This document shows, piece after piece, positions 2,107 through 27,358 of a stretch of 64,000 nt of DNA. Both the position numbers and the translations under genes were made by a program. The notes beneath the pieces were generated by a model. It ran no database searches. It had not been told where the DNA came from and saw only the letters and a list, made by a program, of their open reading frames with translations. The stretch spans positions 69,799-133,798 of the forward strand of contig JBAXAI010000008.1 in the NCBI GenBank assembly GCA_037142615.1. The letters run 5' to 3'. Position 1 is the stretch's first letter; every line of letters starts with the position of its first letter. This DNA comes from Spirochaetales bacterium (lineage in GTDB: Bacteria > Spirochaetota > Spirochaetia > JABEVK01).

Positions 2107-3738
2107 GTGTCCGCGAAGGCGGTCAGCGTGGACAAGGTTTTTCTTTTCGACACGACCCTGAGGGACGGGATGCAGGGAACCGGCATCAACTACACCCTCA
2201 AGGACAAGCTCGAAATTGCCCGGCGCCTCGACGAGACCGGAATGGATTACATCGAAGGGGGCTTCCCGCTCGCCAACGAGAAAGAGGCCGAGTTCTTCCG
2301 CATCCTCAAAAGGGAGCCGCTGACCAAGGCGCGGCTGGCGGCCTTTGGCTCGACCCGCAAGCCAGGCAACAAGGCAGCCTCGGATCCCCACGTCCAGGCC
2401 CTGCTTGCCGCTGAAACGCCGGTGGTGGTGATTGTGGGAAAAGCGTGGATGCTGCACGTCGAGTCGGTGCTCGGCACCACGGCCGAAGAGAACTTGGCGA
2501 TGATCGACGATTCCATCCGCACGCTCAAGGCCGAAGGACGCGAAGTCATTTTCGATCTGGAGCACTTTTTCGACGGCTGGAAGGTTCACCCCGACTACAG
2601 CCGAACGGTGTTGCAAACGGCCCAGGACGCGGGCGCCGACTGGCTGGTGCCTTGCGATACCAACGGAGGCACGCTGGTGAGCGAAGTCGAGGCTATTTAC
2701 CGGTCGCTGGCGGCCATGGCCGGGGCAAAGGGAAGGGCCTTGCGTTTGGGAGCGCACTTTCATAACGACTTGGGTGTGGGGGTAGCCAATTCTCTCACCG
2801 CCGTCGAACACGGGGCCCGACAAGTACAAGGCACCATCAACGGCTGGGGCGAACGCTGCGGCAACGCCAACCTGTGTTCCATCGCGCCCAGCCTGAGCCT
2901 CAAAATGCCCTACACGATCGCGCTCGACCTGGGCCGACTGACCGAGCTTTCCCGTTACGTGAGCGAAAAGGCCAACATGATCCCCGACCGGCGCCAACCC
3001 TTTGTCGGCGAAGCGGCCTTCAGCCACAAGGCGGGCCAGCACGCCGATGTGCTCCAAAAGGCCCAAGACCTGCAGAAGGCAGGCTTCACCCACGGCGGGA
3101 TGATGGAGCACATGGACCCCAGCCTGGTGGGCAACACCCGCCGTATCCTGCTGTCGGAACTCGCCGGCAAGTCCACCGTCGCGATGAAACTCGGAAAGTT
3201 CGGCGCCTTCGACAAGAGCAGCAAGGAAGTGGCCGAACTCACGAAGCTTCTCAAGGACAAAGAGAGCGCTGGTTACGAGTACGAGGCTGCCGAGGCGAGT
3301 TTTGAGCTGCTGGTGCTGAAAGTGCTCGGCCGGTATCAACAACTGTTCGAGCTCGACAACTACCATCTGGAAAGCTACAAAACCTGGGACCGCGACAGCC
3401 AGACGGTCGGCCGGATTTTCCTGACCGCGCAGGGCAAGCGCTCCATGGGCGCCGCCGTGGGTGTTGGACCGGTAGGAGTGCTCGACAAAGCGCTGCGCAA
3501 CGCCCTCGAGGCGAGCTTCCCTTTTGTGCAGTCGCTGTCGCTGACCGACTTCTCAGTGCGGGTGCTCAACGCCGATCAGGAAGCCAGCGACAGCCGGGTG
3601 CGGGTGTTCATCAGTTGGTCCGACGGTGAGCGCACCTGGGATACCGTGGGCGTGCACGAGAACATCATCGAGGCATCGTGGCAGGCGCTGGTCGACAGCT
3701 TCGAGTATTATTGGTTGGCTTTCATCCAACCGAGTTAA
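2107..3738 (+). CDS. cimA: Citramalate synthase (DRE-TIM family, Geobacter-type)
   Basis: DTTLRDG, FDLEHFFDG, HFHND, GERCGNANL and SELAGKS motifs plus a LeuA-type regulatory C-domain. The start may instead be GTG 2128. Confidence 0.88.
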   Translation: MSAKAVSVDKVFLFDTTLRDGMQGTGINYTLKDKLEIARRLDETGMDYIEGGFPLANEKEAEFFRILKREPLTKARLAAFGSTRKPGNKAASDPHVQALLAAETPVVVIVGKAWMLHVESVLGTTAEENLAMIDDSIRTLKAEGREVIFDLEHFFDGWKVHPDYSRTVLQTAQDAGADWLVPCDTNGGTLVSEVEAIYRSLAAMAGAKGRALRLGAHFHNDLGVGVANSLTAVEHGARQVQGTINGWGERCGNANLCSIAPSLSLKMPYTIALDLGRLTELSRYVSEKANMIPDRRQPFVGEAAFSHKAGQHADVLQKAQDLQKAGFTHGGMMEHMDPSLVGNTRRILLSELAGKSTVAMKLGKFGAFDKSSKEVAELTKLLKDKESAGYEYEAAEASFELLVLKVLGRYQQLFELDNYHLESYKTWDRDSQTVGRIFLTAQGKRSMGAAVGVGPVGVLDKALRNALEASFPFVQSLSLTDFSVRVLNADQEASDSRVRVFISWSDGERTWDTVGVHENIIEASWQALVDSFEYYWLAFIQPS

Positions 3739-5053
3739 CCATGGTCACCGGCTGACGGGTGGCCTCGATCACGTCGCGCCACAGGCTCCCCTTGGGATTC
3801 ACGTAATTCCGGTTCTTCGTGGCCATTTTGATGGGCACGTGAACAAACTTGTTGCTCCACAACGAGACCAGCATTTTGGTGCGCCCGGTCATCGCCGCAT
3901 GAACGGCGTTGGCGCCCAGGCGCGCGCAGTAGAGCGAGTCGTTCGGGTCGGCAGGAGCCGAGCGGATGATGTAGCTGGGGTCGATGTAGCGAAGGTTGAC
4001 TTCCATCTTTTCGGCCTTGAAATACTCGCTGATCTTGTCGCGCAGGTAGACCCCGATGTCGGCCAGCTTCTTGTTGCCTGAGGCGTCCTTCTCGTCGGTC
4101 TCGGCCAGATACTTCTGACCGGCTCCTTCAGCGACAATGATGACCGCGTGCTTGCGGGCCAACAGTCGCTTCTTGAGCGCAGCCAGGAAGCCACTGGGCC
4201 CGTCGAGGTCAAAGTCGACCTCGGGAATCAGCACGAAATTGACCTCGGTGGAAGCCAGCGCGGTGTGGCTGGCGATGAAACCCGAGTCGCGGCCCATCAC
4301 TTTGACCAAGCCGATGCCGTGAATGGCGGCGTCGGCCTCGACGTGGGCGCCAGTGACGACCTGAACAGCTTTGCTGACCGCCGTCTCAAAACCGAAAGAC
4401 TTCTGGATGAAGCTGAGGTCGTTGTCGATGGTTTTGGGCACGCCGACAACGGCCACGCGCAGGTTGCGGCGCTCAATCTCTTCGGCCAGCGCGAGAGCGG
4501 CCTTCTGGGTGCCGTCGCCCCCGATGGTGAACAGCATGTTGAGGTTCATGCGCTCGATGGCATCAACCACGGCCGGGATGTCGCCGCCACCGCGGCTGGA
4601 GCCGAGCATGGTGCCGCCGATCTTGTGAATGTCGTCGACGATATCGGGATTCAGTTCCACCACCGGGAAATTGTACTCGGGCAAAAAGCCCTTGAGACCG
4701 TACTGAATGCCGGTGATCCGGCGTACGCCATACCCGTACCACAGATTGCGCACCAGCGAGCGGATCACGTCGTTGAGGCCCGGGCACAGGCCGCCGCAAG
4801 TGACAATCGCGGCGTGGACGTGGTTGGGGTTGAAGTAGATTTTTTGCCGCGGGCCGGCCTTTTCCATCATGGTGCCGACGCCCTGGGGTGGGTTTTCCCT
4901 GCCCTGAAAGGCATACACATCCCAAACGATGAACTCGCTGTCGGTGACGTAGTTGCTGTGCACCAGACCGGTGGAATTGGCGTACTGAAGCGGGTTGTTC
5001 AGCTTGCATTCGCCTAGCGCTTCGATGGAGAAATCCAGCTCGTGCTCAATCAT
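3722..5053 (-). CDS. pfkA: ATP-dependent 6-phosphofructokinase (group X / spirochete type)
   Basis: TCGGLCPGLN, GGDGT, PKTIDND, MGRDSG and IDPSYIIRS motifs. Start set to ATG 5053, after an AAGGGG SD. Confidence 0.9.
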   Translation of the reverse strand: MIEHELDFSIEALGECKLNNPLQYANSTGLVHSNYVTDSEFIVWDVYAFQGRENPPQGVGTMMEKAGPRQKIYFNPNHVHAAIVTCGGLCPGLNDVIRSLVRNLWYGYGVRRITGIQYGLKGFLPEYNFPVVELNPDIVDDIHKIGGTMLGSSRGGGDIPAVVDAIERMNLNMLFTIGGDGTQKAALALAEEIERRNLRVAVVGVPKTIDNDLSFIQKSFGFETAVSKAVQVVTGAHVEADAAIHGIGLVKVMGRDSGFIASHTALASTEVNFVLIPEVDFDLDGPSGFLAALKKRLLARKHAVIIVAEGAGQKYLAETDEKDASGNKKLADIGVYLRDKISEYFKAEKMEVNLRYIDPSYIIRSAPADPNDSLYCARLGANAVHAAMTGRTKMLVSLWSNKFVHVPIKMATKNRNYVNPKGSLWRDVIEATRQPVTMVNSVG

Positions 5054-5124
5054 CGGGGTCCCCTTGATCTCAGAGTTCACCCCCATTGTTCCCTGAAAGG
5101 GCACCCGCACGCAAGAGGGCTGGC

Positions 5125-5153
5125 TTGCGCTGGTTCTCGTGCTGGGCGATAAT
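5125..5153 (+). promoter_or_regulatory. sigma70 promoter of glgX, probably leaderless
   Basis: TTGCGC-17-GATAAT, then 6 nt, then ATG 5160. Confidence 0.55.
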
Positions 5154-5159
5154 GGGACG

Positions 5160-7262
5160 ATGATCCAGACTGAACCCGGAAGTCCTTACGTCCTTGGTGC
5201 GACTCCCGGCGACCGAGGGTGCAACTTTGCTCTGTTTTCCAAAAACGCCACCGCCGTGGAACTGCTGCTTTTTCCGAAGGCCGAGAGCTCTCTTCCCAGC
5301 GAACGCCTGATTTTCGACAGCGTGGTGAACAAAACGGGCGATATCTGGCATATGTTCGTGCCGACCGTCGCCCCGGGTCAGCTGTATGGGTATTCGCTCG
5401 AAGGCCCCTGGGAGCCCCTGACTTCGGGCCACCGCTTCAACGCCGAGAAACTGCTGCTCGACCCGTACGGCAAGGCCGTCGTTGGCGGCCACGATTGGAA
5501 TCGGCCAGAAGCCTACGCCTACGACTGGAACGATCCTCGCGGAGACCTGAGCCTGTCGCGCGTCAACAACTTCGCGGCGGCGGCGAAATCAGCCGTCGTT
5601 TCTTCCGACGCGTTTGACTGGGAGCGCGACAAACCCCTGAACATTCCGCTCAAGGACGCGGTGATCTACGAGACTCATGTGCGCTCGCTTACACGGGATG
5701 CCTCGGCCGGCTGCCAGGCTCCTGGCTCGTACCTGGCGTTGCGTGAGAAGATTCCCTACCTCAAGGACCTGGGCATCAACTGCGTGGAGCTTATGCCCAT
5801 TCACGAGTTCAACCCGAGCGAGAACACCAAGACCAACCCCGAGACCGGAGAACCCCTGGTGAACTTCTGGGGCTACTCGACGATGAACTTCTTCAGCCCG
5901 GCGTCGTGGTACGCTTCGGACGGCGACGGACGGACAGCCGTGAGCGAGTTCAAGGCTCTGGTGAAGGACTTCCATGAGTCCGGAATCGAAGTGATCCTCG
6001 ACGTCGTGTACAACCACACGGCCGAGGGCAACGAATACGGCCCAACTTTTTGCTTCCGGGGTCTCGACAACTCGATTTACTACATGCTCGAAGACAACCG
6101 TTTCTACAAGAACTACTCGGGCTGCGGCAACACCCTCAACTGCAACCATCCGGTGGTCCGACGGCTTATCCTCGATAGCCTGCGCTACTGGGTGGTCGAC
6201 ATGCACGTCGATGGCTTCCGCTTTGATCTTGCGGCGATTTTGGGCAGAGGCGAAGAAGGGGAATGGATTCCGAACTACTCGGTACTCAACGACATCGCCA
6301 ACGACCCCATTCTCAGCAACAGCAAGATCATCGCTGAAGGCTGGGACGCGGCGGGTCTGTTCAAGGTGGGGGCCTTTCCCCGTGGATGGGCAGAGTGGAA
6401 CTCGCACTACCGCGATGACATGCGCTCGTTGGTCAAGTCGGACTTCGGAGTGGTGCCCCGGGCCGCCACGCGCCTTTCGGGTTCTTCCGACCTGTTTCAT
6501 GTGGCCAGCCGCCGCCCTTGGCACAGCATCAACTTTATCACGGCGCACGACGGGTTCACTCTGGCCGACCTGGTGAGCTATAGCTCCAAGCACAACTGGG
6601 CCAACGCCGAACACAACCAAGACGGAAACTCGCACAACCTGAGTTGGAATTGCGGCGTGGAAGGCCTTTCCCGCGACCCCGGCATTCAAGAAACCCGTCG
6701 TCGCCAGCGCCGCAACCTGATGACCCTCTTGTTGGTTTCGCAAGGCACACCGATGCTACAGGGAGGCGACGAGCTCGGTGCCACCAAGTTCGGCAACAAC
6801 AATACCTACTGTCACGATAACCGCCTCAACTGGATGGACTGGAGCCTGCTCGAGACGCAGCCCGAGTTCCACGCCTTCACCCGCTTTCTCATCCACTTCC
6901 GCAAGAACCATCCGGCCCTTCGACGCGAAGCCTTCTTCCAGGGTGGCAGCGACATCGAGTGGCGAAACCCTGCCGGAGCCTCGCCAGACTGGAACGACGC
7001 AGGGCTCTGCCTTTCGGCTCTGTTGCACGGCCGACGCGAAGCCACCCTGGCGACCCACGATGACAACAACCTGTTTCTGGCGCTGAACTTCCACTGGGAG
7101 GCCCGCAGCTTTGTGTTGCCGGTACCTGCACAGGGAAGACGCTGGACCGAAGTCGTCAATACCGCCACCGAACCGGGATTTTCGGCCCCCGAGTCGGGCC
7201 CGACGGTCAGCGGCTCTGTTCGTCTGGATGGACGAAGTATCGTTGTCCTTGTGGAGGCCTAG
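5160..7262 (+). CDS. glgX: Glycogen debranching enzyme / isoamylase (CBM48 + GH13_11)
   Basis: NFWGY, DVVYNHT, DGFRFDLA, IAEGWD and FITAHDGFTL motifs. Confidence 0.93.
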   Translation: MIQTEPGSPYVLGATPGDRGCNFALFSKNATAVELLLFPKAESSLPSERLIFDSVVNKTGDIWHMFVPTVAPGQLYGYSLEGPWEPLTSGHRFNAEKLLLDPYGKAVVGGHDWNRPEAYAYDWNDPRGDLSLSRVNNFAAAAKSAVVSSDAFDWERDKPLNIPLKDAVIYETHVRSLTRDASAGCQAPGSYLALREKIPYLKDLGINCVELMPIHEFNPSENTKTNPETGEPLVNFWGYSTMNFFSPASWYASDGDGRTAVSEFKALVKDFHESGIEVILDVVYNHTAEGNEYGPTFCFRGLDNSIYYMLEDNRFYKNYSGCGNTLNCNHPVVRRLILDSLRYWVVDMHVDGFRFDLAAILGRGEEGEWIPNYSVLNDIANDPILSNSKIIAEGWDAAGLFKVGAFPRGWAEWNSHYRDDMRSLVKSDFGVVPRAATRLSGSSDLFHVASRRPWHSINFITAHDGFTLADLVSYSSKHNWANAEHNQDGNSHNLSWNCGVEGLSRDPGIQETRRRQRRNLMTLLLVSQGTPMLQGGDELGATKFGNNNTYCHDNRLNWMDWSLLETQPEFHAFTRFLIHFRKNHPALRREAFFQGGSDIEWRNPAGASPDWNDAGLCLSALLHGRREATLATHDDNNLFLALNFHWEARSFVLPVPAQGRRWTEVVNTATEPGFSAPESGPTVSGSVRLDGRSIVVLVEA

Positions 7263-17533: not shown

Positions 17534-18339
17534 GGAAGTGCCCCTCTCAGGCCTGGGGGGGAAACGGCCTTGAAGAGGTCCTCGATGCTGTTGAAGCCGT
17601 TGTTGATCACCGACCCAAACGCCTCGATCAGGAAAGGCATGGCCAGCATCATCACCACGAAACCGAAACCGATGCTGATCGGGAAGCCCATCATCATCAG
17701 GTTCATCTGGGGTGCCGCTTTGCCGATAAGGCCGAGGGCCAGCGTGAGCAACAACAAGATGCCAAAAATCGGAAGGCTGAGCAGGAAAGAACGCTGGAAC
17801 ATCTCAGACAGGCCGTTGAGAAGTGTTGTGTTGACAAGTCCAGGCTGGGAAAGGAAATCGACCGCGCGAAGCGCCTTGAACGACTCCCAGACATTCACCA
17901 GGAACACCTGTTGGAAGCCCCCCGCTGAGATAAAAACCAGCATGGCCGAAAGGTTGAGGAACTGGCCCAGCACCGGCAATTCGATCTGCGCCAGCGGGTC
18001 GTACACTTCCGAGGCATTGAAGCCCATCTGCTGGGCGATGAACGTGCCTGACATCTGAAAGGCCGAATACACGAGCACGAGGAAGAAGCCTTGAAGCAGA
18101 CCCAGCAGCGCCTCGCCGATCAGAAGGCCCACGAAAGCCAGCCCGTTTTCGGGAATGGGATACCCGGACACTTGCATCCAGGGAAAAATCACCACCGACG
18201 TGAAGAACGCCAAACCGATGCGCACGGCGTCGGGCATGGCTTCGCTCGAAAACAACGGGGTCACTGCCAGCATGGCAAAAACCCGCACCAGAATGAGAAA
18301 GAAAAGATTCGCGTTCTGGGCAATGCTTTCGAGAAACAC
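17530..18339 (-). CDS. fliR: Flagellar export protein FliR
   Basis: Polytopic; QMGF..YDP and KAAPQMN motifs. Start reset to GTG 18339, after GGGAGG. Confidence 0.93.
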   Translation of the reverse strand: MFLESIAQNANLFFLILVRVFAMLAVTPLFSSEAMPDAVRIGLAFFTSVVIFPWMQVSGYPIPENGLAFVGLLIGEALLGLLQGFFLVLVYSAFQMSGTFIAQQMGFNASEVYDPLAQIELPVLGQFLNLSAMLVFISAGGFQQVFLVNVWESFKALRAVDFLSQPGLVNTTLLNGLSEMFQRSFLLSLPIFGILLLLTLALGLIGKAAPQMNLMMMGFPISIGFGFVVMMLAMPFLIEAFGSVINNGFNSIEDLFKAVSPPGLRGALP

Positions 18340-18352
18340 CCGACCTCCCGTT

Positions 18353-18622
18353 CTATTTGACCATGTTCGGAATCTGGTTGAAGATCCCGATGGTATAGGT
18401 TCGCAGCAGCGTGAACATCCAGGGCCCAAACACGACGAGGGCCCCGAAAATCGACAGGATCTTGGGAACAAACGACAACGTCTGGTCTTGAATTTGCGTC
18501 GTTGCCTGTAAAATCGAGATTATCAACCCAACGATGGTGCCCACGATCAGCACTGGCGCGACCAGCAGCAAGGTCTGGATGATGGCCCCGTTCATCAGCG
18601 ATACGGCTTCTCCGACACTCAT
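18353..18622 (-). CDS. fliQ: Flagellar export protein FliQ
   Basis: QATTQIQDQTLSFVPK motif. Confidence 0.96.
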   Translation of the reverse strand: MSVGEAVSLMNGAIIQTLLLVAPVLIVGTIVGLIISILQATTQIQDQTLSFVPKILSIFGALVVFGPWMFTLLRTYTIGIFNQIPNMVK

Positions 18623-19413
18623 AGATTGAAACTCCTCACAAGGCCGGAAGTCAGCAGGGTCCAGCCGTCGATCATGACAAAGAGGATGAGCTTGAAAGGC
18701 ATCGAGATCATTACCGGTGGCAACATGATCATCCCCATCGCCATCAGCACCGAGGCCACCACCATGTCGATGATGATAAACGGAATGAAGATGAGGATGC
18801 CGATTTTGAAGGCCACGGTCATTTCATGGAGAATGAACGCGGGAACCAGCACGTAGGTGGGCACATCGGCCAGGTTGTTGGGCTTGGGGAGCGAGGACAG
18901 CCGCATAAAAAGCTTGATGTCGTCGTGGTTGTTGCTCTGCATCTGCTTGTACATGAACAGCCTCAGCGGACTTTCTGCTTTTTGCAGGAACTCTGTGGTG
19001 TTCGCTTTTCCTTCTGAGTAAGGAACATACGCCTCGTTATAGATGCGCTGGAACACCGGCCACATGATGAACAACGTCATGAACAGGGCGATGCCGAGCA
19101 TCACCTGGTTGGGAGGCGCCTGCTGCAACCCCAGGGCACGCTTGACGAAGTCGAGCACGATGCTGATGCGCAGAAAGCTCGTCATCAGGATGAGCAACGA
19201 CGGCGCGAGGCTGAGGACGGTGAGCAAGACAAGAAGCTGAACGGAAAGGGCCGTTTCCTGCTGGTTCTGGGCCGGTCGAAGCGCGATGTCGACAAACGGC
19301 AGATTCAGGCCGTTGGTCGTTTGGACCACCCGCTGTTGCGCGGCCAGCTCAGGTACGGCGCCCCCCCCCAGGAGCAAGCCGACAGCCAGCACGACGAGTA
19401 ATTTCTTTTTCAT
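18619..19413 (-). CDS. fliP: Flagellar export protein FliP
   Basis: LSLAPS..MTSFLRI, PPNQV and MGMIMLPP motifs. Confidence 0.97.
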   Translation of the reverse strand: MKKKLLVVLAVGLLLGGGAVPELAAQQRVVQTTNGLNLPFVDIALRPAQNQQETALSVQLLVLLTVLSLAPSLLILMTSFLRISIVLDFVKRALGLQQAPPNQVMLGIALFMTLFIMWPVFQRIYNEAYVPYSEGKANTTEFLQKAESPLRLFMYKQMQSNNHDDIKLFMRLSSLPKPNNLADVPTYVLVPAFILHEMTVAFKIGILIFIPFIIIDMVVASVLMAMGMIMLPPVMISMPFKLILFVMIDGWTLLTSGLVRSFNL

Positions 19414-19439
19414 TCCCCCCCCAGGTATTGAAAAAAAAA
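19361..19439 (-). repeat. Clustered homopolymers at the fliP start: G9 (coding), G8 (SD), T9 (leader)
   Basis: Plus strand C9 at 19361-19369, C8 at 19415-19422, A9 at 19431-19439. Confidence 0.9.
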
Positions 19440-19497
19440 CTCACATCAATTGTTTCAATCGAAGTATGGTTCTCTGACGGGCATTGTAACCCGGAAA

Positions 19498-20157
19498 TTA
19501 GAGATTCTTCAACCGTTCCCTTTGCTTTTTGATGAAATCCGTCGAATTCTCGACCGGTTCGTCAATTTTCGGACGAATTTTCTCACGTTGACCCAACATT
19601 GTGCCGATAATGGCGGCGAAACTACCTTGCAGGGGGACAGCCTTCTTTTCGGAGGCGGCCAACCTCAACGCATCCACTGTCTCGGCGTCGGTGATTTGTT
19701 TCACCAGATTGACGCTGCCCTCGGCGCTTCCGACCAGCAGGATCTCGTTGCCAACCTCGATGAGCAACAGCGCTCGGTTGCCTGCCAAAGTGTGATTATG
19801 CAGAACTTTAATGGGGCTTTCGACCAGGCTTCCCTGCCCCGAAATCTTGCGCAGGAACCAGACCACACCGAGGATCATGCCGATCACCAGAACCAAAAGG
19901 AAGACCATCTTGACGTAGTCCCAGATGGTGACGTCGCCGGAAGGCTGGGCGGTATTGGCGGCCGCCGCGGGGGTGCCCGTATTGGCGGCGGGATCAGCGG
20001 CAGTGGTGTCGCCGCCGGTGATGCCCAAGGCCTTTTCGTCCGGGGCAACCACGGTCGCGGCGGTCGCCGGTGCCGGGGTGGCAGCGGGCTTTGGCGTCTG
20101 GGCCACCAAGGTGGCCGACGCGAGCAGTAGCACAGCGAACAGGGTGCGGATTTTCAC
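19498..20157 (-). CDS. fliZ: FliO/FliZ family flagellar protein
   Basis: Signal peptide, TM helix and LLIEVGNEILLVGSAEGSVNL; lies upstream of fliP. Confidence 0.85.
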   Translation of the reverse strand: MKIRTLFAVLLLASATLVAQTPKPAATPAPATAATVVAPDEKALGITGGDTTAADPAANTGTPAAAANTAQPSGDVTIWDYVKMVFLLVLVIGMILGVVWFLRKISGQGSLVESPIKVLHNHTLAGNRALLLIEVGNEILLVGSAEGSVNLVKQITDAETVDALRLAASEKKAVPLQGSFAAIIGTMLGQREKIRPKIDEPVENSTDFIKKQRERLKNL

Positions 20158-20230
20158 GGCGGCCCTCCCACCTACAACCTACCAAATTATCAGGCGGCGG
20201 AAAAGAGCCGAGGCGGTGACTTTCTGAGCC

Positions 20231-23200
20231 CTACTCTTGCCAGGTAAGGGCGTCGCCCACCCCGGCCCGCCCCGGCTCGCCCGTGGTCGTCGTGCTGCCC
20301 GAAGCCGCCAGCCGGTTGGAGGCAGGCTCCGGGCCCAGGCCAACTTGCGACGCGAAACTTGCGATCCTGGTCGAGCCTGGGTTGGAAGAAGTCGCGCTGG
20401 ACAGCCACGCGGCAGCCTCTTCGCGCTTCTGGGATTTGAGGCTGAGCGCCGCCAGATTCAGGTACGCGGTAACGTAGGTAGGATCCTTCTGAACGACGGC
20501 TTTCAGCGTCGCGACCGCCAAGGCGTTCTCGAGGAACTTGGACTGCCACTGGGCCAGCCGGTTCATCGTCTTGGACCACGCGGAACCAGTCTGGGTCCTG
20601 GCCTCGGCTTCCAGCGCCTTCAAGATCGGGGTGAATTGACTGTCGCGAAGGTCGCGCGCGCCGCGGGCCTGAACTTCAGTCTGGGTAAGGCTGTCGGCCT
20701 GGGGCGCGGGAAGCGTAGAGGGCGGGAGCGGAAGCGCGGGGTACGTGGCCCGTTGGTCAGCGACAACCACCATCTCGAAGTCCCGGGTCAGCTGGTACTT
20801 CGCCACCAAGGCCGAGGCCGCCTTCCACGAGGCGGTGAACCCATTCTGCAGGTCGGTGGACTCCAGGGGAATCCAAAGCGTGCCATGTGCCTTGAGGACG
20901 GCCAGACCGGGGGGGAACATCCAGCCGTTAGCTTCGGGTTCCTGCGAGTCGAAGGCCAGGAACACGTGACCCGGTGTGGTCAGAATCGCGGTCCCCAGGC
21001 CGGAAGCTTCGAGCAGCGAAGCCAAGAGCGCCGTCGTGTCATCGCAGTCACCCCCCTGGTAGGCCAGCGTCATGCGGGGGAACCTCACGGTGTCGACCAG
21101 GCCCGGGTCGGCTGACACCAGGCTGAACGACGACCGCGGATCCGGTACGTACCGTAGTGGCAACGCTCCCAACGCGGCGCATACTGCCGAAGCCCGGGCC
21201 ACCGCGCCCGAAAAAACCGGCTCACCGTCGGCGATGCGCAGCATCCGGAACGCTGCCTTGGCCACAGTGTCCTCATTGGGCGTCACAAAACTCGCCAACT
21301 TGGCGGTGTCGCTCCACGTGAGCGCGGTGCGTCGGTACAAGGTCAGAGGGCGCAGAAACTGGAACGATCGGGGCCCCTGCGAATCGGCGAACCTAACCGT
21401 GATCTGCACCTGCAGCGGCAAGTCCTCTTCGACGTTGAGGACCTGGTCGTTGAGCAGCACCTGGAGAGGCAAAGTAGCCTCGTGGCCCGGCTCCAACGTA
21501 GCGGTGGTGGCCCCGGCCGAGGGAAAGTCCATGAAGTGCGGCAGGTAGACCTCGACGCGCAAGTCTTTCAGGGCCTCGCCAAGGGTATTCTGAAGCACAA
21601 GCGTACCGGCGCGGCGGGTCCGGTAGGCCTGCAGCAGCGACGGGAACAAGGCTGCCAGGTCAAACTGGCGGACCTCAGGCAACGGAGCTTCGGTCGCGGG
21701 ACGGTCGTCAGCCTTGCCCCAATCGGTGCGCAGGGACAAGATTCGGCGGGTCACCTCCTGGTCCTGCGGGGCCAGCGAGCGCAACCGCTCCAGCACTTTC
21801 ATGGCCCGGCTGTAGGCCTCCCGGGCCGACTCAGGGCCGAGGCGCGCCAACAGGTCGCGAGTGGACTTTTCGGCGGCGGCGGCCCGAGTCTTGAGAAGTG
21901 AGGTTTGCAGGCTTGCCTTGCGGTCGCTCGCGGAAGCATCCATCGGACGCAGTTCCAGGTACCGGTCCAGCACCACCCGCTCGGCTTCGTCAGCCCCCTG
22001 GGAACGGTAGGCTTCGGCCAGGGCCTTGTGCGTTTCGGGCTTGCTCGGCTGCGCCAGAGTCTTTTGGTAGGCGCTGGCAATGGTTGCCAAGTCTACCGGG
22101 AGCTTGGAAGGGTCTTCGGAAAAGCGCAGGATGCGGTGCCCTGCGTAGTCGTTGACAAAATACACTCCGTCGGAGCCTCGCACCACATCGGTCAACGTTG
22201 AGAAGGTCAGCGTCAGGCCCTCAGACTTGCCGTTCCACAGCCATAGCAAGTTTCCCCGGGCGTCAAAGTGGCGGAGGTCTTGCAGGGTCACAGCCAGGTA
22301 AGAACCATCGGGGAGCAGCGTCATCTTGTAGAGCGCCTGACCGGCGTCCAGTTCCGGGTAGATGATGTCGCGCACATCCCCTTCGGGCGAAACGATGCGG
22401 ATGGAGCCCTTGCTCTGATCGAACAGACACAGGCTGTTGTCCGGGCCCGGACAAGCCGCAGAGTAATAAGCGTCGGGTGGCAGCGGAAGGTCCACCGGAC
22501 CACCAGGACGAAAGAGGCGGGCGGACTTCGGCTGGAGCGAGATGGCGAAAGGAACGCCCTCGCCCAGAAGACCGAAAAGCGATCCCGGAGACAGGTCGAC
22601 CCTTAGCTTCTGAAAGCTGAAGGAACCTTCGACGAAAGACCATAGCCCGGTACCATCGGAAGAGCGTACGTAGAGGGTTCCCGCCGGAGTGACGGCCAGG
22701 CCGAACGCGAAGTTCACCTGCCCTTCCTCGGTCAACGCCTGAGCCGGTAGACCGACGACCTGCCACCGCTGATCGAGTTCGAGAACCGTGTTGATGCAGG
22801 CCACCAGCAGGTGACCGCTACGGCTCTGCGCCAGACCATACGGCGACAAGTACGAGGTTCCGAGGGGAAGATCCAGTCCCTGCAGGTCCTGCAAAGAAAA
22901 CTGGTCGATCAACCGCGGCGTCACCCCCGAAACCTTCGCCTGAGCGGGCCGAAGGAGCGCCTCGAGGGCACGCGCAAGCTCCAGCGGCAGCGAGGGAGTG
23001 ACCGAGGCAAACTGCAGGTATTTCGTGCGCGGGTTCGGGGACTGGTCCCCTTCCAGCTTCAGGATGAGAGTGAAAGAACCTGCCGTGCCAACCAGCATCG
23101 AAGTCACTTTGACGCCCGACTCCGTGGCCATCAGGGGCATATCATCCTGGAGGCGATCGAGTGCCCGCGCCCAAACGGTCGCCATGGCCTTGGCGGTGGC

Positions 23201-23323
23201 CGCGTCGACAAGGTTCCAGGTCGGTGGTGGAGCCAACTCGGCCGCATCGACGGTTTGCGCTGAAGTGGCGGCAACCAAGCCCAAGGGGAGCAGCAGCAGT
23301 CCGAACAGCGCAAGACCTTTCAT
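20231..23323 (-). CDS. Large exported protein (1030 aa): beta-propeller-like region + TPR + Ig-like + transglutaminase-like Cys domain + TPR
   Basis: ATG 23323 follows GGGAGG and overlaps the upstream stop (ATGA). Signal peptide [21 protein letters not shown]-like repeats (PYGLA, FGLAVTPAGTLYV). GGDCDD..LASLLEASG..PGHVFLAF..WIPLES motif. Confidence 0.75.
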   Translation of the reverse strand: MKGLALFGLLLLPLGLVAATSAQTVDAAELAPPPTWNLVDAATAKAMATVWARALDRLQDDMPLMATESGVKVTSMLVGTAGSFTLILKLEGDQSPNPRTKYLQFASVTPSLPLELARALEALLRPAQAKVSGVTPRLIDQFSLQDLQGLDLPLGTSYLSPYGLAQSRSGHLLVACINTVLELDQRWQVVGLPAQALTEEGQVNFAFGLAVTPAGTLYVRSSDGTGLWSFVEGSFSFQKLRVDLSPGSLFGLLGEGVPFAISLQPKSARLFRPGGPVDLPLPPDAYYSAACPGPDNSLCLFDQSKGSIRIVSPEGDVRDIIYPELDAGQALYKMTLLPDGSYLAVTLQDLRHFDARGNLLWLWNGKSEGLTLTFSTLTDVVRGSDGVYFVNDYAGHRILRFSEDPSKLPVDLATIASAYQKTLAQPSKPETHKALAEAYRSQGADEAERVVLDRYLELRPMDASASDRKASLQTSLLKTRAAAAEKSTRDLLARLGPESAREAYSRAMKVLERLRSLAPQDQEVTRRILSLRTDWGKADDRPATEAPLPEVRQFDLAALFPSLLQAYRTRRAGTLVLQNTLGEALKDLRVEVYLPHFMDFPSAGATTATLEPGHEATLPLQVLLNDQVLNVEEDLPLQVQITVRFADSQGPRSFQFLRPLTLYRRTALTWSDTAKLASFVTPNEDTVAKAAFRMLRIADGEPVFSGAVARASAVCAALGALPLRYVPDPRSSFSLVSADPGLVDTVRFPRMTLAYQGGDCDDTTALLASLLEASGLGTAILTTPGHVFLAFDSQEPEANGWMFPPGLAVLKAHGTLWIPLESTDLQNGFTASWKAASALVAKYQLTRDFEMVVVADQRATYPALPLPPSTLPAPQADSLTQTEVQARGARDLRDSQFTPILKALEAEARTQTGSAWSKTMNRLAQWQSKFLENALAVATLKAVVQKDPTYVTAYLNLAALSLKSQKREEAAAWLSSATSSNPGSTRIASFASQVGLGPEPASNRLAASGSTTTTGEPGRAGVGDALTWQE

Positions 23324-24267
23324 TTCGCCTCCCAGGTTCTCGGGCGGGTGAACACCAGCACCTGGTTGCGCATTTCGCGCGGTAGGATACCCCGGGCCAG
23401 GTCGGGCCGTTCGGTGCGGACAAAGCCTTCCGGGTTCGCGTACAGTTCGGGGTCGCCGGTAGCACCAGGGACCAGACTCCCCAGCACGATGTACACCTGC
23501 GTCGAGGCCCGGGCAAGGATGGCTTTTTCCCAAGAGTTGCCCGGGTCGGGCCAGCAACTGATGACCACCGGTGGGGCGTACTTTTCCAGGGCTGCCTGCG
23601 CGTCGAGCGATTCCACTTCGGAAGGATAGTCGATCACCGACGACCAACTATGGTTGTCGGTAGCGTGAACGGAGCATCCAGCCTGGGTCAGCAAACGGCT
23701 CAAGGTACCGTCGCCTGCCCCCACTTCCACGCACGGCAAGCCGGCGATCAACCGCCGCAATCCTGTGATCAGCGACCGACCGTAGAAGCAGTAGAGGCCC
23801 TTCTTGTTCACCAGAGGCATCAGGAAGGCTTTCTGGGTGACCAGTGGCCACACCAGCGTGTGGTGCCAGCCGCTGACGGCCTTTCGCCGAAACCCGGGGC
23901 CCTCAAACAGGAGGTTTTGCAACAGGAAGGCGTTCCACCGGTTGAAGCGGACTGCGCCCGTGGTTTTTGTCTGGGCGGCCAAGGTGTAGTTCTTCAAGGC
24001 CAGCGTCATCATGCGCGAGCGTAGAAGCACCGGAAAAAACACCGCCAGAACCTGCGGGTTGTACCCGCTCTTGACGATGCGCTCGAGCGCGGCCCGTGAA
24101 TCCTTGGCGGCTTGAACCACCGCCGGAACACCACCGGAGGCTAACAGCAAGCGCAGTTCGCGGTCGCTGCGTTCCCAGTCGCCGGGGTAGCCCGCGATGA
24201 GGGCCTTCAGGGTCGACTGACCCTTCAGAAACTCATCGAGAGCCGCCCGGCTGTAGTCGGGGCTCAG
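23320..24267 (-). CDS. Class I SAM-dependent methyltransferase-like protein, probable CTG start
   Basis: Motif [18 protein letters not shown] and VISCWP. Frame is open to TAA at 24291-24289 with no ATG upstream of 24150. CTG 24267 overlaps the fliY stop (CTGA). Confidence 0.75.
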
Positions 24268-25472
24268 TTTTCGAGGGCCTTGTCGGGATTACTGACGATT
24301 TCGGTGACGCGCACGCCGAAGTTTTCATCGATGACCACGACTTCACCCTTGGCGATCAACTTGTGGTTGACCAGGATGTCGACCGCTTCGCCGGCGAGTT
24401 TGTCGAGCGCGATGATGGTGCCTTCGCCCATCGACAGGATCTCTTTGATCTGCTTCTTGGCGCGGCCGAGCTCGACCGTCACTTCCATGGTGACGTCCAT
24501 CAGCAGGCCAATATTTCCTTGCTCTCCCGAGGAATAGCCGGCATTCAGGTTGGGCAGTTGTACCCCCTGGACGTTGGGGTACATGCCGGGTGGCGGCGCG
24601 TAGCCCTGCGGCGGGTAACCGGGGGGAGGATAGCCACCCTGTTGCGGATACCCTTGCGGCGGGTAGCCGCCCTGCTGAGGGTAACCCTGCTGAGGGGGGT
24701 AACCACCCTGCTGGGGAAAGCCCTGCTGAGGGTAGCCTTGCTGGGGCGGGTAGCCACCCTGTTGAGGCTGGCCAAAGTTTTGCATGGGCATTCCCGCGTT
24801 GCCCTGCTGGGCGCCGCCACCCTGCGCGGGCGAGCCGCCGCCGGGGGTAGTCAGCGTGCGCAAGAAGTTCGCATCAAAGGCTTCGATGATCTTGTACGAA
24901 TCGGTGTCGGCCATCATCGTCCACGTCGCTGTGATGATCTGGTCGGTACTCGGCTGGATCATGGCCTTGACGGTTTTTTGGCCCTGCACCGGACCAGGAG
25001 AAAACTCCTGACTGGCTTTGCGGCTCAACGAGGTGACGAGCGAGCCCGACAGCATCGAGGCAAGTTCCTCGAGGGCGCCAATGCCGGTTTCGTTGAGTTC
25101 GACCTCGGCTTGCCCCATGATGGCGCCTGCCATCTGCGCGGCGTCTTCGGGGTCGATGTAAAACGCATGGTCGGCACTCAGGTCGCCCACGAAGTCGGCA
25201 CGGAGTTCCACCACTTCCTGGCTGAGGTTGTCCAGAAGGCCGTCTTTGTCGACCAGTTCGAAGGTTGGCGGGTTGAGGGTGATCTTCTTGCCGGTGATCA
25301 TGCCGCCGATGGAGTTCGTCAGCCCAGGGACGGCATCCTTGAACAGGGCCTTGAGCGCGGATTCTTCGGCAGCCGCGAGCGACTTCTTGGAGGACTTGGA
25401 CGAACCGCCGCCTCCTCCACCACCCATGAGCAGCGCGTCGATTTCGTCCTGGGACAGGGTCAGGTCACTCAT
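24264..25472 (-). CDS. fliY: Flagellar switch protein FliY/FliN (CheC-like domain + SpoA domain)
   Basis: [11 protein letters not shown]-terminus; C-terminal [24 protein letters not shown]. Confidence 0.93.
24577..24770 (-). repeat. Tandem QQG(G)YP(P) coding repeats in the FliY linker
   Basis: [63 protein letters not shown]; 15-21 nt degenerate units. Confidence 0.9.
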
Positions 25473-25475
25473 GGT

Positions 25476-26501
25476 TCAATCCTCTCCTTCATCGGTCAGT
25501 TCCTCAAAATCCATCTGCTGAAGATCCTCGAGCACCTTGGTGATCTGGACGGCCACACGGTTGCCCATGAGGCCAGGGCGGCAATGGAACTTTTTGCGGT
25601 TGCCGATGGTGAAAACCAGCGGGTCTTCGATGTTTGTATTCGAAAGCCTGATGATGTCGCCGGGCTTGAGGCTCGCGACATCGCGCATCGGCAGGTTGAT
25701 CTTGCCGATTTCGGCGACCATGTTGACGGTAATGCCCGCCAAACGGTCGCGGATGGTGTTGAGGTTTTCGGTGGTGCCGCCGCGGCGCACCGACGAATAC
25801 CAGTACTGCGCGCTCAGCTTGCTGATGATGGGTTCGATGGTCAGGTACGGGATACAGAAGTTCATCATGCCTTCGACATCGCCGAGCTTGGTTTCGAGGG
25901 TAACGAGCACCACCATTTCGGTGGGGGGAACGATCTGGGCGAACTGCGGATTCACCTCGATCTGGCCCAAGCGCGGCCGCAGGTCGATGACCGACGCCCA
26001 GGCTTCGCGCATGTTGCCCAAAATGCGCACGATGATGCCTTCCATGACCGACATTTCGATTTCAGTGAGGTCGCGGGTGACCTTGACGCCCTCGCCGGGG
26101 CCACCAAACAGGCGGTCGATGATGCTGAACGTGACCGCAGGGTCGATCTCGAGGATGGCCGACCCCTTGAGCGGGTCCATGTTGATGACGGCCAGCGTCG
26201 TCGGGTTGGGAATGGAGCGGATGAACTCTTCGTAGGTGAGCTGGTCGACCGAGGCAACGTGCACCTGGATCAGGGTTCGCAGCTGCGCCGACAGGCTCGT
26301 CGTCGTGAGGCGCGCGAACGACTCGTGCATCGAGCTCACCGTGCGGATCTGTTCCTTCGAGAACTTGTCGGGACGTTTGAAGTCATAGATCTTGATCTTT
26401 TTTTGATCGGTGACCTTGGTGACGTCCTCGCTCTCGATGTCCCCCGTGGAAATGGCCGTGAGAAGCTGGTCGATTTCGTCCTGGGACAGAACTTCCGTCA
26501 T
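25476..26501 (-). CDS. fliM: Flagellar motor switch protein FliM
   Basis: LSQDEIDQLL and YDFKRPDKFSKEQ motifs. Confidence 0.97.
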   Translation of the reverse strand: MTEVLSQDEIDQLLTAISTGDIESEDVTKVTDQKKIKIYDFKRPDKFSKEQIRTVSSMHESFARLTTTSLSAQLRTLIQVHVASVDQLTYEEFIRSIPNPTTLAVINMDPLKGSAILEIDPAVTFSIIDRLFGGPGEGVKVTRDLTEIEMSVMEGIIVRILGNMREAWASVIDLRPRLGQIEVNPQFAQIVPPTEMVVLVTLETKLGDVEGMMNFCIPYLTIEPIISKLSAQYWYSSVRRGGTTENLNTIRDRLAGITVNMVAEIGKINLPMRDVASLKPGDIIRLSNTNIEDPLVFTIGNRKKFHCRPGLMGNRVAVQITKVLEDLQQMDFEELTDEGED

Positions 26502-26516
26502 GGCGGAGAGTCTCCT

Positions 26517-27080
26517 TTAGATACTTTCGGCGATGATAAACTGGAGGATGGCCACATCGCGGACCCGACCATCCTGCAGGATGTCGTTGATCTTCATGCG
26601 GATCTCTTCCTTGAACTCGTCCTCGCGCTCCTTCATTTCTTTGCCCGTTTTGGTGCCGATCAAGCGTCGGATAAGGTCCTGAATCTGCGGAATTCGACCA
26701 GTAAGCTCGGTATAGATGCGCACATCGGCCTTGCTGTCGTAGGCCAACTCGACCTTGAGGATAACCGAACGCCCCGGGTCATCGGCAGTGGTGGCGCGGA
26801 TATCAGGAACCGAGGCGAACCATTCGTAGACGGCAGGCTTGAGATTATACACCGGCGAGGCCTCGACGGTCTGCTGTTGGGGTTTGTCGCCCTGCATCAG
26901 GCTGAACACGATGACCGAAACCGTGGCCGAAAGGAGAATGGCACCGATGGCGCCGGCGACGATTTTGAGAATGAGTATGACGAACTCAGGAAGCGGTCCG
27001 CCCTTTTTCTTGCCACCCTCTTCCGCCCCGACTTCTGCTGGTGCTGCGTCGAGGGCTTCTTCTTCTTTTTCTTTCGCCAT
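26517..27080 (-). CDS. fliL: Flagellar basal body protein FliL
   Basis: Single TM helix and EEIRMKINDILQDGRVRDV; lies upstream of fliM. Confidence 0.88.
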   Translation of the reverse strand: MAKEKEEEALDAAPAEVGAEEGGKKKGGPLPEFVILILKIVAGAIGAILLSATVSVIVFSLMQGDKPQQQTVEASPVYNLKPAVYEWFASVPDIRATTADDPGRSVILKVELAYDSKADVRIYTELTGRIPQIQDLIRRLIGTKTGKEMKEREDEFKEEIRMKINDILQDGRVRDVAILQFIIAESI

Positions 27081-27097
27081 AAGGCTCTCCCAGTTGA

Positions 27098-27358
27098 CTA
27101 GTTATCCAGTTTATCGGCGTTTTTGCGGGCATGTAAAGCCCCAATTGCGTCGGCGACCGCCTCGCGGACCAGACTGAGGTCGGTCAACTGCCTGCGGTAG
27201 GTAACAATGCGCTGTTGCAAAGTTTCCAGGGTGTCACGAAGTACGTAACGCTTGCCCGAAACGAGGGTGACCGACACGTCGGGACGGGCCTCAATGCTTT
27301 CGATCTCATGGGGATTCAGGTAGAACACACTGCCGTCGAGGCGGGTCACTTCGATCAT
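27098..27358 (-). CDS. flbD: Flagellar protein FlbD
   Basis: MIEVTRLDGSVFYLNPHEIESIEARPD motif. Confidence 0.92.
   Translation of the reverse strand: MIEVTRLDGSVFYLNPHEIESIEARPDVSVTLVSGKRYVLRDTLETLQQRIVTYRRQLTDLSLVREAVADAIGALHARKNADKLDN
27111..27137 (-). promoter_or_regulatory. Putative sigma28 promoter for fliL, inside the flbD 3' end
   Basis: TTTA-N15-GCCGATAA. The -10 (27118-27111) is a perfect match; the -35 is imperfect. Confidence 0.45.

Follow-up and report, generated by a model that had tools for sequence, protein, structure and literature searches.

Two genes inserted between fliY and fliO in the flagellar operon of a Spirochaetales bacterium

In the freshwater Spirochaetales bacterium represented by assembly GCA_037142615.1 (G000 below), the flagellar switch and export genes run in one direction along contig JBAXAI010000008.1, and two genes without a flagellar name stand among them, between fliY and fliO. 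The stretch analysed, called the window, comprises 64,000 nucleotides (positions 69,799 to 133,798 of the contig), and all coordinates without a locus label are positions in it. The first of the two genes, called MT here, occupies 23320-24267 of the minus strand and has 315 codons for a methyltransferase-fold protein. The second, BIG, follows at 20231-23323 on the same strand and has 1030 codons for a multidomain protein predicted to be secreted. The question raised by this locus is whether the two genes serve the flagellum or are only carried in its operon. The comparison of related genomes and of the loci of both gene families indicates that they are probably a lineage-specific passenger insertion, placed between the stop codon of fliY and the old leader of fliO, in which neither product is a dedicated flagellar part and the two do not form a conserved pair.

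The insert, its joints and its relatives

The minus-strand flagellar run in the window reads fliI, fliJ, a 209-aa gene, fliK, flgD, flgE, flbD, fliL, fliM, fliY, MT, BIG, fliO (fliZ in spirochaete annotation), fliP, fliQ, fliR, flhB, flhA and flhF. The initial annotation, made from the sequence alone, described two extra genes on the same strand between fliY and fliZ, chained by CTGA and ATGA overlaps, and the junctions read as it stated. The TGA of fliY (24266-24264) overlaps a CTG in the MT frame (24267-24265), and the TGA of MT (23322-23320) overlaps the ATG of BIG (23323-23321). The stop of BIG is separated from the GTG start of fliO by a spacer of 73 bp (20158-20230, minus strand). Compared by eye, without an alignment, the last ~35 bp of this spacer (TTTGGTAGG...GCC, ahead of the fliO start codon) recur in G002, the nearest congener, where they belong to the spacer that separates fliY from fliO; by this common 3' part the insert is placed behind the stop of fliY and ahead of the old leader of fliO. 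Around the insert, no convincing direct or inverted repeats were found that would be signs of a mobile element. The GC content of third codon positions is 0.785 in MT and 0.779 in BIG, against 0.74-0.83 in the flanking flagellar genes, so that the insert resembles its host in composition. Two promoter-like sites (0.6 in shuffled sequences), both within fliO, and seven terminator-like sites (6.4 in shuffles) were detected, none of them at the joints, and an Rfam scan of 18000-27000 gave no match at gathering scores. Most probably, the insert is transcribed by read-through from the promoter of the flagellar operon; MT would then be translated by coupling from the CTG that overlaps the fliY TGA, and BIG in the same way from the ATG that overlaps the MT TGA.

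The genome is metagenome-assembled and consists of 76 contigs, so that a chimeric assembly has to be considered. However, metagenome contigs from three freshwater runs of three studies (X1, records 1 and 4; X2, records 8, 11 and 12; X3, records 16, 20 and 21) span the fliO-BIG, BIG-MT and MT-fliY joints with 0-1 differences, where one of the runs may be the source of the window itself. Since all three joints are bridged, the insert is not an assembly error; the joints are also in-frame codon overlaps, and a chimera retains practically no probability. The sole difference in MT among the three DNA runs is a non-synonymous T for G at 23462 (second position of codon 269) in X2. Run X1 also contains a 238-nt contig (record 5) that matches the 3' end of fliY with 5 differences in 73 nt. 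The match breaks off at 24269, in the last codons of fliY, and the sequence beyond is unrelated, so that in a co-occurring relative fliY is followed by something else.

The distance from the end of fliY to the start of fliP is 4851 bp in G000. Among 24 other Spirochaetia genomes it is 638-886 bp in 20, 1611-1665 bp in three and 2441 bp in one. The shortest class leaves room for fliO only, in agreement with the initial annotation, according to which fliO normally comes straight after fliY. This order is found in G001, G026 and G002, whose FliP is 92% identical to that of G000. The flanking flagellar genes are retained, without the MT-BIG pair at the joint, in the congeners G001, G002 and G003. 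In G003 a gene for a 497-aa HDOD protein (L024:4826-6319; Pfam HDOD E 1.3e-38) lies there on the strand opposite to fliY and fliO, and must therefore split the operon; its homologue in G000, 49% identical, is on another contig (C3). The fliY-fliO joint is thus a variable slot in the family of 12 genomes, with three different inserts: MT and BIG, the HDOD gene on the opposite strand, and the gene of an FlgO-like lipoprotein, which is considered below.

MT was found in two of 41 related genomes, G000 and G001, and in four of 401 genomes of the phylum sample. In G001 it stands between a gene for a glycogen-debranching-type amylase and pfk, a pair that is adjacent without MT in G000, G002, G003 and G004; the position of MT is mobile between congeners. 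In the window this pair is found at 3731-7256, where pfk (minus strand) and the amylase/CBM48 gene (plus strand) are divergent and about 130 bp apart, with a FapA gene about 1.5 kb further in G000. A metagenome scan for close relatives of MT returned the contig of G001 only. Of 401 genomes of the class, 59 have a single-copy protein, mostly of 1000-1200 aa, that matches the N-terminal half of BIG at 22-32% identity; within the order (12 genomes), a match at E<=1e-55 is found in G000 alone. Full-length counterparts of BIG were seen in G000 and G026 among the 41 related genomes, the N-terminal half was not found in G001, and MT and BIG coincide in G000 only.

Gene neighbourhoods were surveyed by six-frame tblastn and phmmer, for MT in the best 80 of at least 343 loci (6 kb to either side, 926 kb) and for BIG in 20 loci (8 kb to either side, 363 kb). 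Six-frame tblastn detected BIG, fliM, fliY, fliO, fliP, fliQ, fliR, flhB or flhA at none of the 80 MT loci, and MT or any of the same eight flagellar genes at none of the 20 BIG loci. These two absences, together with the congeners that have no insert, favour a passenger insertion. With a wider query set, one BIG locus (L152) had flgE-like genes about 7 kb away. A blastp match of 75 aa to the C-terminus of FlhB in another locus, L153, was rejected, as six-frame tblastn did not reproduce it at E<=1e-4. The neighbours of BIG orthologues are heterogeneous housekeeping genes and include ppk, a class IV aminotransferase, histidine kinases, ClpB, FeoB, MsrAB, MFS and others.

The two proteins

MT consists of an N-terminal helical part (residues ~1-155) and a seven-strand Rossmann part (~160-311). 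Its AF2 model has a pLDDT of 85.6 and strands at residues 179-182, 200-204, 218-220, 234-238, 258-264, 283-286 and 301-307. The S-adenosylmethionine (SAM) motif I that had been noted in the sequence, VEVGAGDG, is at residues 180-187. Residues E181, A184, G185, D186, G187 and D204 are invariant in 20 sequences, the acidic D204 ends strand 2, and an invariant W-P-x-P-x-N loop (W239-P240...N244) comes after strand 4. Foldseek returned 144 matches at E<=0.001, and those among the matches listed are all class I methyltransferases. VIA gave Z values of 11-12.3 over residues ~120-311, also with only class I methyltransferases among 50 rows. The values are flat over rRNA, tRNA, protein and small-molecule methyltransferases, so that the fold is certain and the substrate class is not given by it.

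The sequence of MT belongs to a family that has remained unnamed. The protein search returned 23 proteins at E<=0.001, the closest being P0005 (81% identity, metagenomic) and P0006 (64%), and a collection of species genomes contains at least 343 relatives, among others in Paenibacillus, Deefgea, Nitrospirota, Acidobacteriota, delta- and beta-proteobacteria and actinobacteria. An alignment of 19 homologues of 278-334 aa has 31 invariant columns, all of which are present in the window protein. Pfam and NCBIfam gave no family for MT at E<=0.01, a search of PDB sequences with the MT profile reached E values of only 0.2-0.6, and in the Atlas the protein falls into Pfam-less clusters named 'SAM-dependent methyltransferase family protein'. 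No fused forms were seen among proteins of 553-2000 aa, which is weak evidence. A PADLOC match to a Type I specificity subunit (E 0.005) was judged to be noise. As modelled, MT is certainly a class I SAM-dependent methyltransferase in fold, and it appears to be a cytoplasmic member of a widespread, stand-alone family.

With generic class I methyltransferases (KsgA/Erm, PrmA, Trm and the plant O-methyltransferases) MT shares the seven-strand Rossmann fold, motif I in the form E-x-G-A-G-D-G and the acid D204. It differs from them in belonging to no sequence model, in the W-P-x-P-x-N loop, and in the added helical N-terminal part of ~150 residues, which is barely covered by the fold searches. CheR and FliB are flagellum-linked methyltransferases, NCBIfam contains a flagellin-methylase model, and in CheR a helical N-terminal domain is located ahead of the Rossmann domain. 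MT is similar to these enzymes in being a methyltransferase among motility genes and, as far as CheR is concerned, in its helical N-terminus. However, the CheR, CheR_N and flagellin-methylase models of Pfam and NCBIfam did not match MT at E<=0.01, and neither CheR nor FliB is among the listed Foldseek matches or the 50 VIA rows, an absence that the flat Z values make non-excluding for CheR.

BIG begins with a predicted signal peptide (residues 1-23; 23255-23323, minus strand, as are all parts of BIG), read by eye from the translation as MK, a hydrophobic core and TSA ahead of Q, with no lipobox cysteine. The protein would thus be exported by Sec to the periplasm. Residues ~135-425 (22049-22921) are predicted to constitute an NHL-type beta-propeller: a BIG profile of 35 relatives (A2) matches the designed NHL-derived six-blade 'Pizza' propellers with E values of 1e-13 to 1e-11 at profile positions 212-416, and the matches of BIG orthologues extend across this part. 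The Pfam NHL match is marginal (E 0.026, below the cut-off). A helical linker with tetratricopeptide repeats (TPRs) follows at ~429-544 (21692-22039; Pfam TPR_14 at 429-460, 23.8 bits against a cut-off of 23.5). The next two domains are defined by the AF2 model of residues 545-900, which has a pLDDT of 91.8. They are an immunoglobulin (Ig)-like beta-sandwich at 545-667 (21323-21691), for which VIA finds the barrel domains of transglutaminase 2 and other sandwiches at Z ~9 (model residues 1-122), and a transglutaminase-like, that is papain-like, core at 669-854 (20762-21319). The chain ends with further TPRs at ~923-993 (20345-20557; Pfam TPR_19 at 935-993, 31.2 bits against a cut-off of 25), and TPR chains of the PDB match profile positions 935-1045. 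A protein or a component of the cell wall is the probable ligand of the propeller and the TPRs.

The motifs GDCDD, GHV and WIPLE of the core carry Cys760 (codon at 21044-21046), His786 (20966-20968) and Glu821 (20861-20863), which are invariant in 35 aligned sequences and are predicted, from this conservation, to be a catalytic triad. The best matches of the core in VIA are 3kd4_B (Z 10.7, root-mean-square deviation 3.0, 132 residues aligned), PNGase 2f4o (Z 9.0), 3isr (Z 8.9), LapG 4fgo (Z 8.7) and PeiW/PeiP (Z 8.0-8.1). Foldseek matched it to transglutaminases 2 and 3 (TG2/TG3; E 4e-5 to 1e-3), 3isr and TgpA, and an Atlas cluster in which 58% of the members have Transglut_core scored 0.94. 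A Pfam search of residues 541-930 gave no family at E<=1 and hence no Transglut_core match; a paralogue on contig 7 of G000 matches Transglut_core with E 3.1e-4, under the cut-off, and a distant relative, P0089, matches DUF553 with E 7.4e-4. The conserved Cys-His-Glu core would be catalytically active, cleaving or cross-linking an amide or isopeptide bond. The parts that had been recognized in BIG before this analysis (signal peptide, propeller, TPRs and a Cys-His-acid core) are thus all supported, by translation, profile, Pfam, the AF2 model and the invariant triad.

The search with BIG returned 64 proteins at E<=0.001, with lengths of 739-1101 aa among those of 42-53% identity; the closest relatives, P0027-P0031, are metagenomic and 49-53% identical. 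Of the C-terminal module, which is one of a multi-copy family, G000 has three more copies of ~700 aa, none beside flagellar genes; one directly adjoins an NHL-propeller gene and another has such a gene nearby. On contig 14 of G000 (L158:4241-8865), the gene for a 684-aa paralogue of the module comes after genes for an ABC transporter and a homocysteine S-methyltransferase, and it shares 10 bp with a downstream gene that encodes an NHL-propeller protein of 859 aa. The propeller and the core therefore also exist as neighbouring genes, and BIG joins both in one chain.

The known proteins closest in kind are bacterial transglutaminase-like cysteine proteases and isopeptidases (the putative protease BDI_1141, 3kd4; a putative cysteine protease of Cytophaga, 3isr; LapG, 4fgo; the periplasmic domain of TgpA, 6g49; and the pseudomurein endoisopeptidases PeiW/PeiP). 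BIG shares with them the papain-like core and the order of a Cys at a helix N-terminus, then a His, then an acid, all invariant in BIG. An extracytoplasmic location, predicted for BIG by its signal peptide, is common to LapG and TgpA. BIG differs in that its third residue is Glu, with the spacing C-x25-H-x34-E, and in that the core shares its chain of 1030 aa with an Ig-like sandwich, an NHL propeller and two blocks of TPRs; the likeness to LapG is one of fold only (Z 8.7). The animal enzymes TG2 and TG3, which give the best Foldseek matches (9bc3, E 3.9e-5), have the same succession of an Ig-like sandwich and the core. However, over the whole BIG model the TM score is only ~0.2, the deviation ~15 A and the identity 11-13%, and the comparison does not distinguish cross-linking from hydrolysis. 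The sandwich-plus-core module (residues 575-931) also aligns to positions 15-368 of the NCBIfam model 'anti-phage protein ProA' (NF058533) with E 1.1e-17, but the score is 62.9 bits against a cut-off of 1500 and 354 of 1903 model positions are covered. BIG was rejected as an anti-phage ProA, its score being far under the cut-off and PADLOC giving no match to it. Literature searches found no paper on ProA, nothing relevant on transglutaminase-like proteins with spirochaete flagella, and no paper on the MT or BIG family.

Passenger, module or accessory

The initial annotation had offered two explanations of the pair, a module of co-expressed genes that could modify proteins of the flagellum or the envelope, and a simple passenger insertion. 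According to the former, MT would methylate in the cytoplasm and BIG would cleave or cross-link in the periplasm. The targets of BIG could be, for example, the filament, the hook, the collar or the peptidoglycan round the motor. The position in the fliM-fliY-fliO-fliP run, the overlapping stop and start codons, and a BIG with a signal peptide and an intact Cys-His-Glu triad are what such a module would have. Spirochaete motors also bear lineage-specific periplasmic multiprotein collars, made of FlcA and other proteins (PMC8609358), and in the sister genus g2 the slot is filled by an FlgO-like TPR lipoprotein. However, the survey of 80 MT and 20 BIG loci shows no linkage of the two genes, so the pair was found nowhere else. 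MT is restricted to G000 and G001 among the 41 related genomes, and G001 has MT and no detectable N-terminal half of BIG; G001, G002 and G003 keep the flanking genes without the pair. The homologues do not recur in or beside flagellar operons either: flagellar genes are near BIG in one of 20 loci (L152) and near MT in five of 80, and in these MT is never in one operon with a flagellar gene. Unlinked homologues are what the initial annotation had named, on the comparative side, as refuting its module. A module of this kind is very unlikely, and the other explanation, a passenger insertion that is lineage-restricted and unlinked elsewhere, fits best.

Several observations weigh against a passenger insertion. 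The overlapping stop and start codons on both sides suggest that expression together with the switch and export genes has been selected, and BIG, by its signal peptide, would be periplasmic, as are spirochaete flagella. In all three g2 genomes whose fliP locus was fetched, the fliY-fliO slot contains, on the strand of fliY, the gene of a 309-aa lipoprotein with the lipobox LVGC (L162:6348-7277 in G005, L163:6356-7285 in G008 and L161:1476-2369 in G010). This gene abuts the fliY stop with its start and overlaps the fliO start with its stop, and the product has matches to Pfam FlgO (E 7.6e-11) and CsgG (E 6e-9) and C-terminal TPRs. It is like the insert of G000 in slot, strand, tight joints and a secreted product with C-terminal TPRs; genuine flagellar accessories can therefore land there. 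It differs in being FlgO/CsgG-like, in bearing a flagellar name and in being unrelated to MT or BIG, and no homologue of it was found in G000. The surveyed contexts, moreover, leave out the closest metagenomic relatives, P0005 of MT (81%) and P0027-P0031 of BIG (49-53%). In a metatranscriptome run, X20, fliY is matched by two contigs of 165 nt, at 24251-24415 and at 24784-24948. The former extends only 13 nt beyond the fliY stop, too short to count as bridging, and the insert is left without RNA cover, which is uninformative. The remaining points concern the surroundings of MT. With the wider query set, motA/motB or a rod gene was found within 6 kb of MT in the five loci, in five different arrangements. 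In G001 (L027) motB-motA is 1.4 kb from MT and convergent, with pfk between; in a Leptospirales metagenome-assembled genome (L051) motA-motB is ~2 kb upstream on the same strand. In two Geobacteraceae (L073 and L080) flbD-motA-motB is convergent and, by our own calls of open reading frames (ORFs), 18-39 bp from the 3' end of MT, and in a second Leptospirales genome (L028) a Flg_bb_rod protein gene is 1.1 kb upstream, with an OmpA-family gene convergent. Besides G000, three of the four spirochaete MT loci (G001, L051 and L028, not L090) show such proximity.

These surroundings would be explained if MT alone were linked to motility, its family methylating a motor- or stator-associated protein, with the capture in G000 making the link operonic and BIG an unrelated fellow traveller. 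A count of five in 80, and of three in four among spirochaetes, is to be compared with an expectation of ~5% per locus, which is a rough estimate and not a computed control. Against this explanation, the counts are small, the pattern was noticed post hoc, and five of 80 is not clearly above a background of 3-5%. In all five loci MT is outside the flagellar transcription unit, being convergent or separated by pfk, cation-efflux or other genes, and the other 75 loci (Paenibacillus, Deefgea, Nitrospirota, Acidobacteriota, actinobacteria and others) have no flagellar gene by the queries used. Clustering gave no conserved neighbour, and the fold, with its flat Z of 11-12, gives no substrate class. 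The link of MT alone to motility is therefore unlikely, and the proximity to stator genes is a weak lead and not a finding. More speculatively, and with a still smaller chance of being right, the fliY-fliO joint might be a slot at which the export-apparatus operon of this family takes up lineage-specific accessory genes. MT, made by re-initiation at the CTG, would methylate a motor or stator component, and material of the periplasmic flagella, the collar or the cell wall would be trimmed or cross-linked by BIG, both proteins being made in step with the motor; the occurrence of the MT family beside motA/motB in several phyla would belong to the same picture.

The start codon of MT raises the opposite possibility, that MT is a decaying gene whose ATG was replaced by CTG on insertion against the fliY stop, so that it is barely translated and BIG is the sole functional cargo. 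From the upstream stop (24291-24289) onwards, the first canonical start codon (ATG, GTG or TTG) is a TTG at 24150, 39 codons past the CTG. The CTG (24265-24267) is the sole candidate near the homologous N-terminus; full-length homologues of 307-334 aa align from this position and have their Met exactly there. The stored gene call, P0004, is an N-terminally shortened form of 266 aa, which would drop the conserved N-terminal helices. MT was also not found in three of four congeners and is thus dispensable in the genus. However, the gene has 315 codons without a stop or frameshift and keeps all 31 family-invariant columns; like BIG with its triad, it looks intact. Its first 48 residues, upstream of the canonical starts, are as conserved as the remainder (40 of 47 against 208 of 263 identical to P0005), which argues for their translation, and where stop and start overlap, ribosomes can re-initiate at a codon other than AUG. 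Decay is improbable, and MT would initiate at or near the CTG, probably coupled to the termination of fliY. The passenger insertion favoured here accommodates two intact genes.

The surrounding operon and what the insert means

The gene upstream of fliY, fliM, is at 25476-26501 on the minus strand. fliY itself (24264-25472, minus strand) encodes a C-ring protein of the FliN family with a CheC/CheX-like N-terminal part; it matches Pfam FliMN_C with E 3.8e-23 and the NCBIfam FliY model PRK08119 with E 8.5e-49, the latter under the model cut-off. At 24545-24870 it contains a long linker rich in Gln, Gly, Pro and Tyr, encoded by degenerate direct repeats with a spacing of 66 nt, and the length and sequence of this linker vary between congeners. 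Downstream of the insert, fliO (19498-20157, minus strand) is identified by Pfam FliO (E 1.1e-11, 45.1 bits against a cut-off of 22). In spirochaete operons motA-motB usually stand between flbD and fliL; in the window flbD is directly followed by fliL (26517-27358) with no motA-motB between them, and a motB homologue of G000 is on contig C17. Pfam gave no match for the 209-aa gene between fliJ and fliK. Long plus-strand ORFs opposite the flagellar genes (such as 24363-27101, up to 912 codons) arise as artefacts from a GC content of 60%; a gene caller that picks the longest ORF was misled by them. The double name of fliO is also met in B. burgdorferi, where the legend of a figure gives it as FliZ (bioRxiv 10.1101/303222).

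The locus thus has a meaning for the reading of operons as well as for the two protein families. It exemplifies a core flagellar operon that accepts foreign genes at one of its joints, and it calls for caution when function is read from operon membership. MT brings to attention a widespread methyltransferase-fold family, present in at least 343 genome stretches and outside the Pfam and NCBIfam models, with a weak but testable tendency to be located near stator genes. BIG represents a large family of secreted spirochaete proteins with an intact transglutaminase-like triad. If either protein were to act on the periplasmic flagella, an enzymatic modifier would have been added to a motor in which the lineage-specific parts known so far are structural.

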